DNA of 15,370 nt, from IMG/VR virus record IMGVR_UViG_2751185972_000002; one strand, given 5' to 3'. Below the pieces are notes generated by a model, which saw only the letters and a program-made list of their open reading frames with translations, was not told the origin of the DNA and searched no databases. Of the stretch, positions 1-7,875 are shown in pieces; position 1 is the first letter of the stretch, and the number at the start of each line of letters is the position of its first letter. The translations under genes were made by a program, and so were the position numbers. The DNA is from a virus. Taxonomy: Duplodnaviria > Heunggongvirae > Uroviricota > Caudoviricetes.

Positions 1-705
1 AAGACCGCACGAATATAACGGTGGGTTCCCCCCAAACGAATCGGAAAATCGATACTGGAAAAACTCTAACTCGGTGGCCAGTTTTTGTTGACCACTTCAA
101 ACCGCAAAAAAGCGAACGTCATGCGCCCGGTGGAGTACCAGAACGGCGAAGCATTCACTATCCGTAACGTACAGGTTATGCCTGAATCCATTCCGGCTGG
201 CTTTAAGGCACTGGCTGACATGAGTCCGTTTGAATCCCTGCTGATTGTGGATTTGGGCGGAACCACGCTGGATGTGGCAAAGGTTCAGGGGCAACTGGCA
301 GGTATCAGCCAGGTGTTTTGCGATCCACACGTGGGCGTTTCTCTGATGGCCGATGCCGTACTGTCGGTGATGGCCACTAACGGTATGCGCACCAGTCACC
401 ACATCGCCAATACCATTATCGAACATCGCCATGATGAAGCCTGGCTGCGCCAGCACATCCACAATGACGCGCATTACGCCAGCCTGATGGCGGTAATTCG
501 TGAAAAGGAAGAAACACTGAAACAACGCGTGATCCGCGCGCTGGCGGTTTTTTCGGGTTACGGGCGGGTGATGGTTGTCGGTGGAGGGGCGGAGATTGTG
601 GCACCCGCTATCCGCGAAGCCTGCGGAGTTAATGCGACTTTCATCGCGGACGGGGTGCCACAGTTTGCTCTGGTTAATGGGCTGTACGCAATGGACAAGG
701 AGTAA
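1..705 (+). pseudogene. parM: ParM/StbA-like actin-type segregation ATPase; 5' end off-window and reading frame disrupted near 82-90
   Basis: ORF 85..705 (206 aa) aligns, by recall, with the C-terminal ~185 residues of plasmid R1 ParM (RKKAN, FTIxxVxVMPESIPAG, LIVDLGGTTLD, VMVVGGGAE). The same frame has stops at 16-18 and 67-69. Frame +2 is open from the window start to a TGA at 89-91 and reads ...FPPNESEN..., resembling the ParM segment just upstream. This implies a 1-nt indel around the T5 run 82-86. Confidence 0.55.
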
Positions 706-709
706 ACCA

Positions 710-1021
710 ATGACGACTCCAACCAGACGGATAAGTTTCTATCTGAAGCCCACCGCCGTCAAGAACGAAGGAGAAGCATGCGCCTGGCTGGACAGCCTTA
801 CACCAGAAGCCCGCAAAAGCGGCCAACGCGTGGCTTTTCTGGCCGGGCTGGCACTTCTGAAAATGAATCCGGCAGAGGCTTATCGACTGGCTGCATGGGC
901 TGGTGATGAAGCGTTATCAGTGACACAAACCAGGACAGAACGCCCCGCATCACAGCCAGTATCAACCGCACAGATAACCAGTCAGATGGCCGGAAATATC
1001 CGGGCGTTATTTCCTGAATAA
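710..1021 (+). CDS. parR: ParR-like ribbon-helix-helix DNA-binding protein (partition adaptor-like), 103 aa
   Basis: RBS AAGGAG 8 nt upstream of ATG 710, 4 nt after the parM-like stop. N-terminal residues RRISFYLKP...AWLDSLTPEARKSGQRVAFLAGLAL resemble R1 ParR (RRTIAFKLNP...CDTLDSIPQGERS...AALTAGLAL) by recall. Position directly downstream of parM matches parMR operon order. The track ORF 575..1021 is an upstream extension overlapping parM. Confidence 0.6.
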   Translation: MTTPTRRISFYLKPTAVKNEGEACAWLDSLTPEARKSGQRVAFLAGLALLKMNPAEAYRLAAWAGDEALSVTQTRTERPASQPVSTAQITSQMAGNIRALFPE

Positions 1022-1084: not shown

Positions 1085-1675
1085 ATGAGCGAAATCAACT
1101 ATCAGGCATTACGTGAACGTTATTCACCTGTGCCAGTACCGAAATGCCCTATTTGCGGCGAGGAAATGTCAATTCAGCGAATATCTGGAGCACAGGTTGT
1201 TTATGCCTGCTCCGGTTATGGTGATGATGGAGATTTCAAAATTGGCCGAACTCTTGCTGACGAACATTATGAAAAATCACGCGTAACAGTGTTGGATGTC
1301 GGGGATCCTGAAGTATTGGCGCTACTTGATTGGCTGGAAACCAAAGACAACCGAATCGCTGAACTGGAAAAAATCGCCACTGACTATGCACTTAAATTCC
1401 AGAAAGCACAGGACGCATTAAAGCATGCCGCTTTGCTGCATAGCAGGACGGCGCAACAAACAAATAATTTTGCAGTATCGCTTCCGGACATAAGCGAATA
1501 TTTCATTAATGACGTATTTCAGCCCTTGCGATACGAGCGGGATGTTGAAAGAGCCATCATAAAGGCTGGCGGAAAAGCATTGTGGCAGGAGAAACACGAG
1601 GACAGAACGCATCAGTCATGCGATGTAAATTGTGGATGGTTTAGCCCACTGACGACAGATAAAAATAACACCTGA
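1085..1675 (+). CDS. hypothetical protein, 196 aa; N-terminal CPICG Cys motif plus predicted coiled coil; possible ead/Ea22-like relative
   Basis: Strong RBS AAGGAG 7 nt upstream of ATG 1085; clean 196-codon ORF. Visibly more AT-rich than neighbours. N-terminus (xINYQALRE) and LALLDWLE coiled-coil segment recall the ead/Ea22-like family of lambdoid prophages; this assignment is tentative and unsearched. Confidence 0.65.
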   Translation: MSEINYQALRERYSPVPVPKCPICGEEMSIQRISGAQVVYACSGYGDDGDFKIGRTLADEHYEKSRVTVLDVGDPEVLALLDWLETKDNRIAELEKIATDYALKFQKAQDALKHAALLHSRTAQQTNNFAVSLPDISEYFINDVFQPLRYERDVERAIIKAGGKALWQEKHEDRTHQSCDVNCGWFSPLTTDKNNT

Positions 1676-1687
1676 TCCCCCTCAAAC

Positions 1688-1713
1688 CAGGGCGATAATC
1701 GCACATCGCCCTG
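1688..1713. repeat. GC-rich palindrome CAGGGCGAT-(8 nt)-ATCGCCCTG 13 bp downstream of ORF 1085..1675
   Basis: Arms 1688-1696 and 1705-1713 are perfect reverse complements and share the CAGGGCGA/TCGCCCTG core with the hairpin at 1030-1047. Possible terminator or cassette boundary; no T-tract follows. Confidence 0.6.
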
Positions 1714-1714
1714 C

Positions 1715-1741
1715 TGCACAATAGTGCACAAATTTGCACAA
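1715..1741. repeat. Three direct TGCACAA heptamers spaced exactly 10 bp apart (1715, 1725, 1735); a fourth copy at 1807-1813
   Basis: Read directly: TGCACAAtagTGCACAAattTGCACAAttttttt. Helical-phase spacing suggests a protein-binding array (operator, iteron or centromere-like). Confidence 0.55.
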
Positions 1742-2112
1742 TTTTTTTGAACGAATTTTTGCCCTTCCAGCCCGCGTGGCGGCTGGATCCGTCAAGGATC
1801 CGTGCGTGCACAAAAAAACGCGCTTTTTCTGCGCGCAGGTGACGGGGGAACAGCCCGCGTTTCAGGGGGTAAATAGCGTTCCCTTAACGATGTCGCAGCG
1901 ACACGACAGAATGGCCGTATTTCTCACGCTGAGCGTGAAAAATACGTGAGGGATTCTGATTTGATGGGGTGAAAGGTAAGGCCGTCAAAATCGCACTGAG
2001 GCGGCGAGAACATGCAGTCAACGCGGTGGGATTGCGTAAGAGTCTGACCGTCGATGGTGGCGATAAACTGGAAGGCGTCGTGAAATTATCTGACTGATAC
2101 AGGAGCTGGAGA

Positions 2113-2141
2113 GTCGGGGCATAAATTTTTTATGCCCCGGC
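2113..2141. repeat. Perfect 11-bp inverted repeat CGGGGCATAAA-ttt-TTTATGCCCCG between convergent accessory genes and Q
   Basis: Arms 2115-2125 and 2129-2139 are exact reverse complements. Lies about 25 bp beyond the Q stop. May be a bidirectional terminator-like hairpin, but no flanking U-tract on either strand. Confidence 0.45.
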
Positions 2142-2165
2142 GAAGCAGCAGACAAGCGAAGCGCG

Positions 2166-3212
2166 TCAGGATGTGGGCTGGATGTCTAACAGTGCGTAAG
2201 GGTTAAAGCGGATCACCTCTTCGCCAAGCCAGTCATTGATGTGCTTCATGGCCTCCATGACGGGCATCAGCTCGTTAATTGCGTAAACCCGCGCGGCCTT
2301 CTCCACATCACCAAACGCACTTTTTTCACCCGGCATCGCCCCCATCAGTTGCGGCGGAACGCGGTGCGCAGCCAGCACATCATCACGGGATGCCGCCTTA
2401 ACATTCATGAACTCATCCTTTGCGGTGATCTGCTGGAACGGCAAAATTTGCACCCCCTCTTTGCCCCCGTTGGGCGCATGAATGAGCACGTTTTTAAACG
2501 CACCACCACCACGCGCACCCTGTAGCGTTTCTTTCAGGGAGTCCATGCTTTCGCGGTTTACCTGCGCGGCACCGATGTAGATGATGCACCCGGCGTGGGA
2601 TCCGTTGTCGTAATACAGTTTTCTGAACATGTCCGCCGAATGAGACAGGCTGGCCGAGAGTAATGCGCCGAGATATTCCGGCATGCCGTAGATTTCCTGG
2701 TTAATGTCAGGATTCATCAGGTGACACACTTTGCCTGGGCGAAACTGAAACGCATCCTTGCCATCCTGCACATACCTCCATGATTCAAGATCGCTTCCGC
2801 GTCGCATGTATTTCGCCAGGGCGTGCCGTAATTTAAGCGGTTCGCCGAGCATATTGCTTCGAAGCTCAAGGAATGCGTTACCGAACACAAACCAGTCCAG
2901 CGCCAGCGCCGAGAAATCCTGCCGGGAAAGCAGCGGGTGCGGGATGTAGCAACCGAGCAATACATTGCGCTTAAAATAAAGCGCAGACTGATGCCAGGAC
3001 GTTTGCCGGGCAGCTCTTGCCAGACCGTACCAGTCCACCGGGGTTTCATACCACCGCCCGTTATCAGCACAGTACATATTGTCCAGCAGGTCATGCCCGG
3101 TCAGGCGATAAGGACCATCAAATGTGAATGCACTGAGCGATGATTCTTTCCTGAGCGCATCAGCGAGATCAATGCGTGAACTCATGCGCACTTTTTTATT
3201 TTTTCTGCTCAT
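2166..3212 (-). CDS. Q: portal protein (P2 gpQ-like), 348 aa
   Basis: Length matches P2 Q (344 aa by recall). Immediately downstream of, and overlapping by 1 nt (TGATG), the terminase gene, as in the P2 P-Q operon. RBS GGAG 7 nt upstream of ATG at 3212. Confidence 0.88.
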   Translation of the reverse strand: MSRKNKKVRMSSRIDLADALRKESSLSAFTFDGPYRLTGHDLLDNMYCADNGRWYETPVDWYGLARAARQTSWHQSALYFKRNVLLGCYIPHPLLSRQDFSALALDWFVFGNAFLELRSNMLGEPLKLRHALAKYMRRGSDLESWRYVQDGKDAFQFRPGKVCHLMNPDINQEIYGMPEYLGALLSASLSHSADMFRKLYYDNGSHAGCIIYIGAAQVNRESMDSLKETLQGARGGGAFKNVLIHAPNGGKEGVQILPFQQITAKDEFMNVKAASRDDVLAAHRVPPQLMGAMPGEKSAFGDVEKAARVYAINELMPVMEAMKHINDWLGEEVIRFNPYALLDIQPTS

Positions 3213-4963
3213 CAGAACTCCATAACCGTGAAACGCTCGTTTTCTCCTTCGCCGCCAATCGGTTCGTTAATGACAGCAAGCATGGTTGCCCACGCAAGGT
3301 CGCCGTGGCTGATCCCCCTCGCTCGGTCCGTTTCGTAAGTGATAAAGCCGCCCGGTGTTTTCACCTTACGCACGGCGTTAAAGGCCGCGACCAGCTCGCG
3401 TTCGGCGCGATCGTATTCCCACCGCCCGGCACGCATTATTTGCAGCATTTTCAGTACCAGCGACCGTTTTGATGACAGCGTGAAGGTGTACGGAATAGCG
3501 GCAGGGAAAAACCGTTTCACTATCTGATAAACAGCCTCCCCGTTCCCGCCCGTCACATCAATGCCGATGTGTTCCACGTTGTAGCGACACGTGAACTCTT
3601 CAATGACTCTGGCCTGTTCTTCAAACTCCAGCCCCTGAACGCGTCGCGTCTCCACCGTTCGAAAACGGCCACCAGGAACAGACGGAGGAACCACCACGGA
3701 CACAGCGCCGCTGTCGCCGTTGCCACTGCTGCCGTTTGCGTCATACCCAATCCATACCGGACGATTCCCCATCGGGCGGGGAGCAAAAGGTTTCCAGTCT
3801 TTCCAGTCGTCGTATCCGTCAACGCCGCAGCCAATCAGGATATTCAGGTTAAATGCCGATTCCCCTTCGCGGACAAACTCACACATATAGAGATTGAGGA
3901 ACTCGTCTTCGGTGTTTTCATCACGAATTTCGTCGATATCGGTGTGTTTCCAGCCGTGATTAACCACATCTTCCAGCGTGACAATTTGCCGCCACGTCCG
4001 GTCAGGGCAGATAAGCCCGTTATGCAGCGTTTTCCAGTCCACAGAAAAACGCTGGCGTTTATGCGAGGCCTTTTTCTCGTTCCAGCGGTCGCCGTTCCAG
4101 TAGGCGTATGCCTCGTGCGTTTCGGTGGATGGCGTGGAGAAGTAGGTGCGCCGCAGTCCGCTGAGGGTTGCCATAGCGCCAGCCACCTTGCGCAGTTCAG
4201 CAAAGCGACTGACCCAGAAAAATTCATCAAAATAAAAATTGCCCGTATAGGACTGTGCCGACGCAGCAGAAGTGCCGAGAAAATGCAGCTCTGCGCCGTT
4301 GGAGAGGATGATTTTATCGCCCCCTTTCAGCTCCACATCAACTTCAGCCGCGGCCTTCTGAATAATGCTTTTAAACTGGAACGCCTGACGACGCGACGCA
4401 GACAAAAAAATCTGGTTACGCTGGTAAGGTTGCGCCACATCGTCACGCAGCGCCATCAGCAGTGCTTCCTGTGCAAAATACCAGGTCGCCCCAATCTGTC
4501 GGGATTTCAGGATCATCCTGTTACGTATCCCGGCTTCCCTGCAAAGGGTCAGGGAGTCAAACCAGCCCCGCTGATGCCACTCCAGCCTGCTGATGATTTT
4601 TTCCCGCAGTGCGGCAATCTGTTCCGGCGTGAAATGATTTTTGAGTTTTTTCGCCCGGCCTTTCTTTCCTGCGGCCATCACATCCGGCTGGCCATCATGC
4701 AGCTTTTTAAGCTGCCGGGTCAGCAGGTCTATTTCCTTAAAGTCACCGCCTGTTTTATTCTGTTTTTCAGTAAGCTGGATGAGGCGCGCATCGATGGACT
4801 GCGTGACACGCTGCCCGGGTGGCGTTTCATCCCACTGGTCACGTTTTTTCCACGCATAAATCGTGTTCGGGTTTATTCCCATCAGACGTGATATTTCTGC
4901 GGGCGGATAACCCTGCCAGTAAAGTTGCCGCGCACGCTGGCGCACAAAAGCGTCCTGAATCAT
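3212..4963 (-). CDS. P: terminase large (ATPase) subunit (P2 gpP-like), 583 aa
   Basis: 583 aa vs P2 P 590 aa. N-terminal helix-turn-helix-like segment (YWQGYPPAEISRLMGINPNTIYAWKKR) typical of P2-family terminase ATPase. RBS GGGGGAG 5 nt upstream of ATG at 4963. Divergent from O as in P2. Confidence 0.9.
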   Translation of the reverse strand: MIQDAFVRQRARQLYWQGYPPAEISRLMGINPNTIYAWKKRDQWDETPPGQRVTQSIDARLIQLTEKQNKTGGDFKEIDLLTRQLKKLHDGQPDVMAAGKKGRAKKLKNHFTPEQIAALREKIISRLEWHQRGWFDSLTLCREAGIRNRMILKSRQIGATWYFAQEALLMALRDDVAQPYQRNQIFLSASRRQAFQFKSIIQKAAAEVDVELKGGDKIILSNGAELHFLGTSAASAQSYTGNFYFDEFFWVSRFAELRKVAGAMATLSGLRRTYFSTPSTETHEAYAYWNGDRWNEKKASHKRQRFSVDWKTLHNGLICPDRTWRQIVTLEDVVNHGWKHTDIDEIRDENTEDEFLNLYMCEFVREGESAFNLNILIGCGVDGYDDWKDWKPFAPRPMGNRPVWIGYDANGSSGNGDSGAVSVVVPPSVPGGRFRTVETRRVQGLEFEEQARVIEEFTCRYNVEHIGIDVTGGNGEAVYQIVKRFFPAAIPYTFTLSSKRSLVLKMLQIMRAGRWEYDRAERELVAAFNAVRKVKTPGGFITYETDRARGISHGDLAWATMLAVINEPIGGEGENERFTVMEF

Positions 4964-5977: not shown

Positions 5978-7029
5978 ATGAATCTGGTGATGTCAGATAT
6001 TACCCGCAACAAGCTGGGTTGCTATATGGCGCAGCAGGTGTCGCTTAATAATATCCCGGTATCTGCACTGGTGTCGCGATTTACCGTGGAACCCGCGGTG
6101 CAGCAGCGTTTTGAAAACGCCTCAAAGGAAAGTACCGAATTTACGAAAAAAATAACGTGATCGGCGTGACCGACCAGAAAGGCGAAAAAATCCTCCTGGA
6201 TACCACAGGACCGATTGCGCGCACGAATACCAGTTATGACGGCACAAAACGCCGTAACCCGAATAACGTGGTTGATCTGAAAAACCGCAAATATCAGTGT
6301 GAACAGGTGAACTACGACACGTTTATTTCGTATCCGCAGCTTGATGCCTGGTCGGCACACCCTGATTTTCAGTCCCGCATCAGCGCACAGATTGCCCGAC
6401 AGGTGGCGCTTGACCGCATCATGATCGGTTTCAACGGCACGTCTCACGCGGATGAGTCCAACTTCAGCACCAACAAGCTGCTTCAGGACGTTAACGTGGG
6501 CTGGCTGGAGCACATCAGAACCGACGCCAGCGAACGCGTTATGAATGACGTGACGCTGACCTCCCGCAACATGGACAACACCGTGGCGCACGCGGGTAAG
6601 TATGCGAACGCTGATGCACTGGTACAGGACGCGCGTTCATCCCTGCTGGATGAATGGCACAAGGAAGCTGACGACCTCGTGGTGATTATGGGGCGCAACC
6701 TGTTTAACTCGCTGCGTCTGCCCGTGCTGAACAGCATCAGCGGCCAGAATCCCAATGCGGAATTACTCGCCGGGCAGCTCATCCTGTCATCGCGCACCAT
6801 TGGCGGGCTGGGCGTGTTCCTTGCGCCGTTCTTCCCGGATGCAACGATGCTGATCACCTCGTTCAACAACCTGTCGATTTACTGGCAGAAAGGTTCAATG
6901 CGTCGCCTGATGAAAGACGAGCCGGAATACAACCGCATCGCCACCTACCAGTCCATCAATGACGCTTATGTCGTTGAAGACTATGGCAAGTGCGCGATGG
7001 TTACTGGCCTGAAGTTCGCCGACAGCTAA
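5978..7029 (+). pseudogene. N: major capsid protein (P2 gpN-like) with a 1-nt frameshift at the A7 run 6146-6152
   Basis: ORF 5978..6160 (60 aa; RBS AAGGAG; contains RFTVEPAV like P2 N KFTVEPSV) stops at TGA 6158-6160. ORF 6157..7029 (290 aa) continues the P2 N homology (KGEKI, MIGFNGT, VGWL, DLVVIMGR, LSIYW, DYVVEDY). Combined length ~350 aa vs P2 N 357 aa. Restoring one base at or next to the A7 tract gives a continuous ...EFTKKINVIGVTDQ... frame. Confidence 0.8.
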
Positions 7030-7074: not shown

Positions 7075-7875
7075 ATGATTACTCCTGCACAACAACACTG
7101 GCAGAACGTGATGGCACAGCGCGCAGGCCGGGCGAATGAAGGCGTGGACCACGCCGCGCGTACCGCGCATGAAGAGGTGCTGTATCGTCTGCGTCTGGCA
7201 CAGGCCCGGCTTAAGGGCGTACAGGCCAGAAGCGCGAAAGCCGCCATCAAAAAAGAGTTGTTGCCGGATTTTTCCGGCTGGATTGAGGGAACGCTGGAGG
7301 CTGACGGCGGGCAGCAGGATGAAGTGATTGCCACGCTGATGGTGTGGGCGATTGACTGTGGCGATCTTCCGCTTGCGCTGCGTATCGGCGCGTATGTAGT
7401 CCGTCACAACCTCATCATGCCGGATAACTTTGGCCGTACTGCTGCCACGGTACTGACCGAAGAAATCTGTAATCCGGTACTGACGCAGGCCGGGACGGAT
7501 GCCGACGCGGATTTGTCCGCCTTTATCGAACCACTGGACACCCTCCGGGAGATTGTCACCGACCAGGACATGCCGGACGAAGTGCGCGCCAAATTATGCA
7601 AAGCGTGCGCCTTTGCCCGCCGTGGCCTGAGTGATGCGGACAGCATGGCCCTGTCACTGAAGCTGCTGCGCGAAGCAATGCACCTGAACCCGAACGCAGG
7701 TGTGAAACGCGAGATTGCAACCCTTTCCCGCGCCCTGAAAAAAGCCGATTCCGCAGCCGAACCAGAAGACGCCAGCGCACAGCAGGCGCAGGACGAAAGC
7801 AGCAAAAGTAAAAAGACAACGCGGAAGCCTGCAACACGAAAAACCACCGCGACGCAGAAGGCGAAGCGCGGTTAA
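7075..7875 (+). CDS. M: terminase small (endonuclease) subunit (P2 gpM-like), 266 aa
   Basis: RBS GGAGA 6 nt upstream. Sequence KKELLPDF, DMPDEVRAKL and the basic K/R-rich C-terminal tail match P2 gpM (KKRELLPFW, DMPDEVRAKL; recall). P2 M is 247 aa. Confidence 0.88.
   Translation: MITPAQQHWQNVMAQRAGRANEGVDHAARTAHEEVLYRLRLAQARLKGVQARSAKAAIKKELLPDFSGWIEGTLEADGGQQDEVIATLMVWAIDCGDLPLALRIGAYVVRHNLIMPDNFGRTAATVLTEEICNPVLTQAGTDADADLSAFIEPLDTLREIVTDQDMPDEVRAKLCKACAFARRGLSDADSMALSLKLLREAMHLNPNAGVKREIATLSRALKKADSAAEPEDASAQQAQDESSKSKKTTRKPATRKTTATQKAKRG

Follow-up and report, generated by a model that had tools for sequence, protein, structure and literature searches.

The stretch of DNA analysed here (the window: 15,370 nucleotides, IMG/VR record IMGVR_UViG_2751185972_000002) is a P88-type, P2-like prophage (Xuanwuvirus, Peduoviridae). 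BLAST against phage genomes returned P88-like phages at 92-98% identity, and in almost all of them the match begins at window position 1714/1715, with different cargo to the left. In the window, this left-hand DNA holds ParM and Plasmid_stab_B genes 0.7-1.7 kb from the repeat array that is our subject, followed by an Ead/Ea22-like cargo ORF; portal gene Q and the two terminase genes lie to the right of the array (Table 1). The order gpA-side cargo, repeats, Q, P and then O, N and M on the plus strand is the late-gene order of P2 (Q-P / O-N-M-L), and the annotation of P88 itself runs from replication gene A through ParM, ParR, cargo and repeats to the portal. P2-like phages have an accessory hotspot that adjoins cos (PMC9122126); the cargo occupies this hotspot, downstream of gpA, and the array is located between it and portal Q. 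P88-type prophages were found in 1150 of 5426 complete E. coli genomes (~21%).

Two observations concern the prophage as a record. Its major capsid gene N is split in two frames (5978-6160 and 6157-7029), one T being missing by an A7 run (~6146-6153) relative to two related prophages, L101 and L089 (ACGAAAAAAA-TAACG versus ACGAAAAGAATTAACA); this reflects either a frameshifted, defective gene or a homopolymer sequencing error. The first of these relatives, contig L101 (NZ_JBQPOM010000071.1), is labelled Vagococcus sp. and contains a P88-like prophage of E. coli type with 99% identity and with ParMR; its presence in a Gram-positive record is probably due to contamination or mislabelling.

Phased TGCACAA words beside a predicted cohesive end

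A first-pass annotation of this DNA had described three phased TGCACAA words with a fourth further on, T/A runs and two GGATCC palindromes, all in non-coding DNA between the cargo ORF and Q. Direct reading and pattern search confirmed the words, which lie on the plus strand at 1715-1721, 1725-1731, 1735-1741 and 1807-1813 (R1 to R4), as well as the palindromes at 1785-1790 and 1796-1801, which form a direct repeat GGATCCG with 11-bp spacing. The runs are also as described, a T7 at 1742-1748 after R3 and an A7 at 1812-1818 that overlaps and follows R4, and the ORFs and Pfam matches bear out the non-coding setting. TGCACAA alone is not enriched in the window, with 6 copies against 3.8 expected and as many in 38 of 200 shuffles; the triple at exact 10-bp spacing occurred in none of the 200 shuffles, even with 3 mismatches allowed, and four of the six copies in the window fall within 99 bp. 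The T7 run and the T-rich/CCC block that follows it form a possible intrinsic bend. The strong hairpin immediately left of R1 is the end of the variable DNA and no part of cos.

Table 1. Genes and sequence elements of the window around the TGCACAA array, with positions relative to the predicted nick where given.
Feature	Position	Strand or place	Basis and remarks
Truncated parM (PF21523/PF06406)	left of array		Pfam
ParR-like gene, Plasmid_stab_B (PF10784)	710-1021		Pfam
Ead/Ea22-like cargo ORF	1085-1675		ORFs, Pfam
Strong hairpin ending the cargo module	1688-1713	+	-15.6 kcal/mol, z -4.5; just left of R1
Distal array R1-R3	1715-1741	+	three TGCACAA direct repeats, 10-bp spacing, -123/-113/-103 from predicted nick
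T7 run, GA, T-rich/CCC block (TTTTTTTGA..... TTTnTnCCC)	1742-1764	+	invariant columns in TGCAC class
Central dyad CCAGCC-N8-GGCTGG	1767-1786	mid-spacer	ungapped anchored comparison, 34 cos regions
GGATCCG direct repeat (two BamHI/Dam sites)	1785-1802		lineage-specific
Proximal repeat R4, TGCACAA + A-run	1807-1818	+	at -31, 72 bp from R3; counterpart of TGCATTAAAA in P2/186/P4
Inverted repeat CGCGC-N7-GCGCG abutting predicted nick	1818-1836		-11.8 kcal/mol
Predicted cosN, 19-nt cohesive end GGTGACGGGGGAACAGCCC	1838-1856	+	register uncertain by ~2 nt
Right flank of cosN, GCGTTTCAGGGGGTAAAT	1857-1874	+	conserved; also in KD602-type satellite
Portal Q	2166-3212	-	ORFs, Pfam
gpP, large terminase subunit	3212-4963	-	PF03237, PF17289, PF06056, HTH_23
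gpM, small terminase subunit	7075-7875	+	PF05944, E 6e-37

We placed the nick by homology to P2, with an uncertainty of ~2 nt. The predicted cohesive end of the window, GGTGACGGGGGAACAGCCC, is identical to the left cohesive end of P2, GGCGAGGCGGGGAAAGCAC (cosL, NC_001895), at 13 of 19 positions in an ungapped alignment, and its junction, between GCA and GG(C/T)G, is that of 186. Counted from this nick, the TGCAC words of the window start at -123, -113, -103 and -31. In P2 and 186 (at their right ends) and satellite P4, whose cos has been defined by experiment, TGCAT words start at -123/-124, -111, -101 and -29, and the fourth copy is likewise trailed by an A-run and an inverted repeat. The alignment with the cos flanks of P2 and 186 that had been proposed as a check thus returned the same layout of three distal words and one proximal word (3+1), also in P4, and the third option of the first-pass annotation, by which the array would be part of a cos packaging recognition region, is strongly supported by this comparative evidence. 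A minimal P2/P4 cos fragment of ~125 bp, which Ziermann and Calendar are said to have described in 1990, would agree with a requirement for R1-R3. The accessible literature on P2 and P4 gives a '55-bp core' as the cos region, and such a core would span R4 and cosN, not R1-R3; in an engineering study, cosmids with longer flanks around the 55-bp core transduced 10^3 to 10^4 times better, so flanks matter. All four words are present in P4, though cos is the only homology that P4 has been reported to have with P2.

Two published phage genomes show peculiarities at the equivalent place. In phage Chuche (L002, PP925824), a virion-derived assembly, 8 nt (GGAACAGC) are missing inside the predicted cohesive end at ~2670-2690, an artefact of a sort to be expected where a genome physically ends. 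At the right end of P2 (L005 1425-1470), annotated transcript starts put the -35 region of the old-tin promoter over R1, so that packaging signal and accessory-gene promoter overlap in this phage and the DNA of the array has other roles in some relatives.

Conservation and co-variation across prophages and satellites

We scanned one genome per bacterial species with a portal alignment, which gave 80 prophage loci in Enterobacterales and Burkholderiales. When these were anchored on the cosN pattern, many of them showed the 3+1 layout, which is common to P2, 186, P4 and ~40 diverse prophages. The word itself co-varies at the distal and proximal sites and falls into TGCAC, TGCAT and TGCGT classes: TGCAC(AA) is found in the clade of the window and in Yokenella, Klebsiella, Xenorhabdus and Morganella prophages, (T)GCATG is the word of the P2/186 class, and TGCGT is that of four Collimonas prophages. 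A blind search for the layout, made without any cos pattern (5-mer at x, x+9..13, +9..11 and +68..75, with at most 1 mismatch), located it downstream of the portal gene in 25 of the 67 full-length loci, compared to 4/67 on the opposite strand, 1/67 in coding DNA and 3/67 in shuffles. R3 and R4 are 72 bp apart in almost all of the true matches, and every one of these has a GGCGxGGCGGGG-like cosN ~30 bp further on. Under this strict search the layout was not found in about half of the distant loci, which may be divergent or have more DNA inserted between cos and Q.

At closer range, the alignment of 13 species-level relatives of the window has no indel from R1 to the nick. Major-allele frequency among them is 0.97-1.00 in R1-R4 and 0.96 in cosN, as against 0.72-0.87 in the short spacers, 0.77 in the long spacer and 0.54 in the left flank, and the phasing of the heptamers in R1-R3, on which the first-pass annotation had staked its claim, is conserved in these homologous loci. 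Invariant positions make up 9 of 11 in R4 with its A-run and 16 of 22 in the cosN region; the sequence of the inverted repeat adjacent to the nick is poorly conserved (0.73). Twenty P2-class sequences show the same conservation behaviour. The left boundary was resolved with 78 IMG/VR loci whose portals are 99-100% identical and which have 33 distinct left flanks in 21 unrelated families. In this sample the major-allele frequency rises from 0.38 at -124 to 0.95 at -123 and is near 1 thereafter, and since the jump falls exactly at R1 across the 21 flank families, cargo exchange has repeatedly preserved everything from the first base of R1.

The cos layout also occurs outside P88-type prophages. 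The lowest-identity full-length match of a cos-only query (77%) lies in a 12.7-kb island of E. coli KD602, between hpt and gcd (loci L169/L170, NZ_CM145715.1 ~3803000-3815700). This island is a P4-like satellite with two integrases, an HTH regulator, an Icd-like gene, a toprim primase, an Ogr/Delta-like gene, a P2-family (major) capsid gene and MazEF, and its 12.7 kb contain no gene for a terminase, portal, tail or ParMR. Three TGCACAA copies at 10/10 spacing are present in it, with a T6 run, and 72 bp after the array come TGCACAAAAAA, the dyad, GGTGACGGGGGAACAGC and the right flank; its spacer (~55 bp) is diverged and without GGATCC. Islands of the KD602 type are present in 54 complete E. coli genomes. 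One of these, FDAARGOS_1299, also carries a 99.9% match to the window. KD602 itself is without a P88-type cos, and as a rough bound no more than 32 of the 54 genomes with the satellite can be without one (baseline prophage carriage, 21%). Satellites that have no terminase of their own thus share a cos of either type, P4 for TGCAT and the KD602-type island for TGCAC.

Parts of the spacer are less widely kept. Both copies of GGATCC occur in nearly all E. coli P88-type prophages, where a few haplotypes have GGGATCC at the second; one GATC is left in other species and none in the satellite, P2, 186 or P4. Because GGATCC is unconserved outside the E. coli lineage and in the satellite, we rejected it as a core element of cos. 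A dyad of the form GCCAG-N2-4-CTGGC stands at the place of the central dyad in most members of both word classes (L089-L166, 186 and P4), and is absent from P2 in the anchored, ungapped comparison of 34 cos regions.

Several loci are rearranged at or near cos. In IMGVR_UViG_2681813261_000011 (L032, ~2864-2924) an IS1 end (GGTAATGACTCC...) abuts GGTGACGG and parts cosN from the array with R4. The contig stops inside the IS1; this cos is probably inactivated. The interval between cosN and Q (window 1875-2165) is a second variable site in relatives, holding a ~600 bp insertion with a hypothetical gene in many E. coli genomes, and in other species the array is up to 2.3 kb from the portal gene. 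A Xenorhabdus thuongxuanensis prophage (L110) has an extra TGCAC-type array (CTCACAA / ATCACAA / CTGCACAA + T5) ~130 bp left of its own, different cos, possibly left behind by recombination between types of cos.

Interpretation, candidate readers and competing explanations

We put at about 85% the probability that 1715-1874 is the cos site of a P88-type P2-like prophage and that terminase recognises its four TGCACAA words, all in one orientation, a reading based on sequence comparison in which terminase binding at the repeats, like the choice of subunit, is putative. The window has the traits of P2-family cos sites, namely the cohesive end, the location, the conserved core and the sharing with satellites, and it contains homologues of gpP and gpM that are predicted to cleave and package this cos. 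In the mechanism that we propose, terminase protomers would occupy R4 and, at intervals of one helical turn, R1-R3 by cooperative binding, and the rigid 72-bp spacer (~7 turns, with T-tracts and the central dyad) would allow the complexes at the distal and proximal sites to meet on a single face of the helix. The joined complex would then place the gpP nuclease at cosN (1838-1856), where the nicks would be staggered by 19 nt.

As to which subunit would read the words, gpP has an N-terminal HTH at aa 6-63 (~4775-4948; PF06056, HTH_23). Its putative recognition helix has the form NTxYxW in all 15 TGCAC-class proteins, among them those of Xenorhabdus and Morganella, which are only ~41% identical in the HTH domain, while it has the form [PA]TV[HQ]SW in the TGCAT class and STVASW in the TGCGT class. 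This match between helix and word is only suggestive because the word classes are also clades and the comparison is confounded by phylogeny, and gpP (38/583) holds no higher density of columns that separate the classes than gpM (14/266) or the portal (16/348). For gpM, AlphaFold (30 homologues; pLDDT 82) gave a model that is all-helical and TPR-like, with a basic disordered tail at 230-266, and contains no HTH; gpM has no sequence relative in the PDB, and Foldseek with the model returned weak TPR-like matches only (E ~0.02). Residues 1-90 of gpP gave only marginal HTH matches to solved structures. We slightly favour the gpP N-terminal HTH, judged by these sequence and model features, as the somewhat more likely reader of the repeats, and regard gpM as an alternative or additional candidate.

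The first-pass annotation had also considered that the repeats might be a parC-like centromere or an operator for the ParR-like protein encoded next to them (710-1021). ParR sites typically consist of phased iterons, and the parC of ParMRC systems (e.g. R1) has short helically phased iterons near parM and parR, as does the window, where the ParM and Plasmid_stab_B genes are close by to the left. The array of the window nevertheless sits downstream of parR, past another gene and a strong hairpin, rather than upstream of parM, and it is tied to cosN. It is also kept where the partition genes are missing: by tblastn, ParM and ParR homologues occur only in P88, Chuche and L101, whereas the array is intact without ParMR within ~5 kb in L089-L096, L099, L127, the satellite and Enterobacter phage phiT5282H (whose cargo is an AAA ATPase and an S8 peptidase), and the same layout is found in P2, 186 and P4, all of which are without ParMR. 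Nor was a promoter-like site detected, a search of 1000-2300 giving no sigma-70-like promoter. With the array retained without ParMR in at least 12 lineages and in the wrong position, we reject both the centromere and the operator options and leave them a negligible probability. The canonical position of parC is just upstream of parM, and this is where P88 has a distinct repeat with palindromes, a 42-nt direct repeat (L001 311-425; 79% identical, each copy with an ACGGGA...TCCCG palindrome) that is a candidate parC of the phage-borne ParMR module.

It is also improbable that the elements are mainly transcriptional, with the R2-R3 hairpin and T7 as an intrinsic terminator of rightward cargo transcription and the inverted repeat with A7 as its counterpart for leftward late transcription. 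A scan does flag terminator-like sites at 1724-1739 with T7 on the plus strand and at 1836-1818 with T7 on the minus strand, the cargo hairpin at 1688-1713 has no U-tract of its own, and P2 has an equivalent minus-strand hairpin with a T-run. However, the R2-R3 stem is weak (5 bp, -6.1 kcal/mol, z -1.9), and it pairs because GTGCA/TGCAC contains the palindrome TGCA. Termination would leave R1, R4, the invariant 72-bp spacing and the co-variation of the word at two sites unexplained; moreover, P2-class arrays are without a T-run after R3, and P4 retains the elements even though transcription of its neighbouring genes runs away from cos. A secondary terminator role for the hairpins is possible. 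Improbable as well is a factor other than terminase at the repeats, whether a host nucleoid protein or a phage protein with a part in circularisation, ejection or replication at the end of the genome. The binding partner of the repeats is putative only, and the spacer dyad at 1767-1786 and the T-tracts suggest further factors; on the other side, 1700-1860 contains no IHF consensus, even with one mismatch, and satellites that borrow only virion and packaging functions retain the repeats. In addition, the word differs between lineages within one host species (P2 and P88 in E. coli), which speaks for a reader that is encoded by the phage and diverges together with the word.

Implications and comparison with known cos sites

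The array is essential to the phage but ordinary in kind, an expected component of an ordinary prophage. Its useful details, which lend themselves to testing, are the explicit layout of 3+1, the word classes and the invariant 72-bp spacer. A wider proposition, which we offer tentatively and consider doubtful in its full form, is that all P2-like phages and their satellites share a bipartite 3+1 terminase-recognition module as yet without an explicit description, that its word defines a helper/satellite packaging-compatibility group, and that its reader is the HTH of the large subunit and not the small subunit. The cos sites of P2 and P4 are used for cosmids and for antimicrobial transducing particles, and a signal that reaches ~123 bp to one side of the nick would, if true, explain the poor packaging of minimal '55-bp' cos cassettes. 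A signal of this length would also define the exact inner edge of the P2 defence-gene hotspot and predict which helper mobilises which satellite, and the array would offer a direct experimental handle on how a P2-type terminase finds its substrate.

The proposed joined complex implies that the element would work like lambda cosB, in which R3-I1-R2-R1 comprises sites for gpNu1 together with IHF. As in cosB, several short repeated sites stand beside the nicking site, there recognised by protein and here proposed to be, and their constant spacing implies a nucleoprotein complex, bent or looped, by which the nuclease is positioned. The two nevertheless have no sequence or protein homology, and, unlike in lambda cosB, every recognition element of the window is found on that flank of cosN which faces away from the terminase genes. 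A lambda-type IHF site between the repeats is likewise missing, there being no match to WATCAANNNNTTR at up to 1 mismatch in 1700-1860, and in place of a small subunit with a gpNu1-like winged-HTH reader the window has its HTH on gpP and a gpM that is predicted to be TPR-like.

The closest likeness is with the cos sites of P2, 186 and P4 (Ziermann and Calendar 1990, Gene 96:9). These differ from the window in their word, TGCAT(G/T) rather than TGCACAA, in an R1-R2 spacing of 12-13 bp rather than 10 bp, in the position of R4 (-29 rather than -31) and, in P2-class arrays, in having no T-run where the window has T7 after R3; the overhang differs from that of P2 at 6 of 19 positions, and overall sequence identity to P2 is modest. 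By contrast, they share with the window a homologous 19-nt GC-rich end, the genomic place between the gpA-side accessory hotspot and portal Q, the 72-bp distance from R3 to R4, and the succession of proximal word, A-run and inverted repeat before the nick, such that the CGCGC-N7-GCGCG of the window has its like beside the nick of P2 in an inverted repeat CCGCCC...GGGCGG followed by TTTTAATG.
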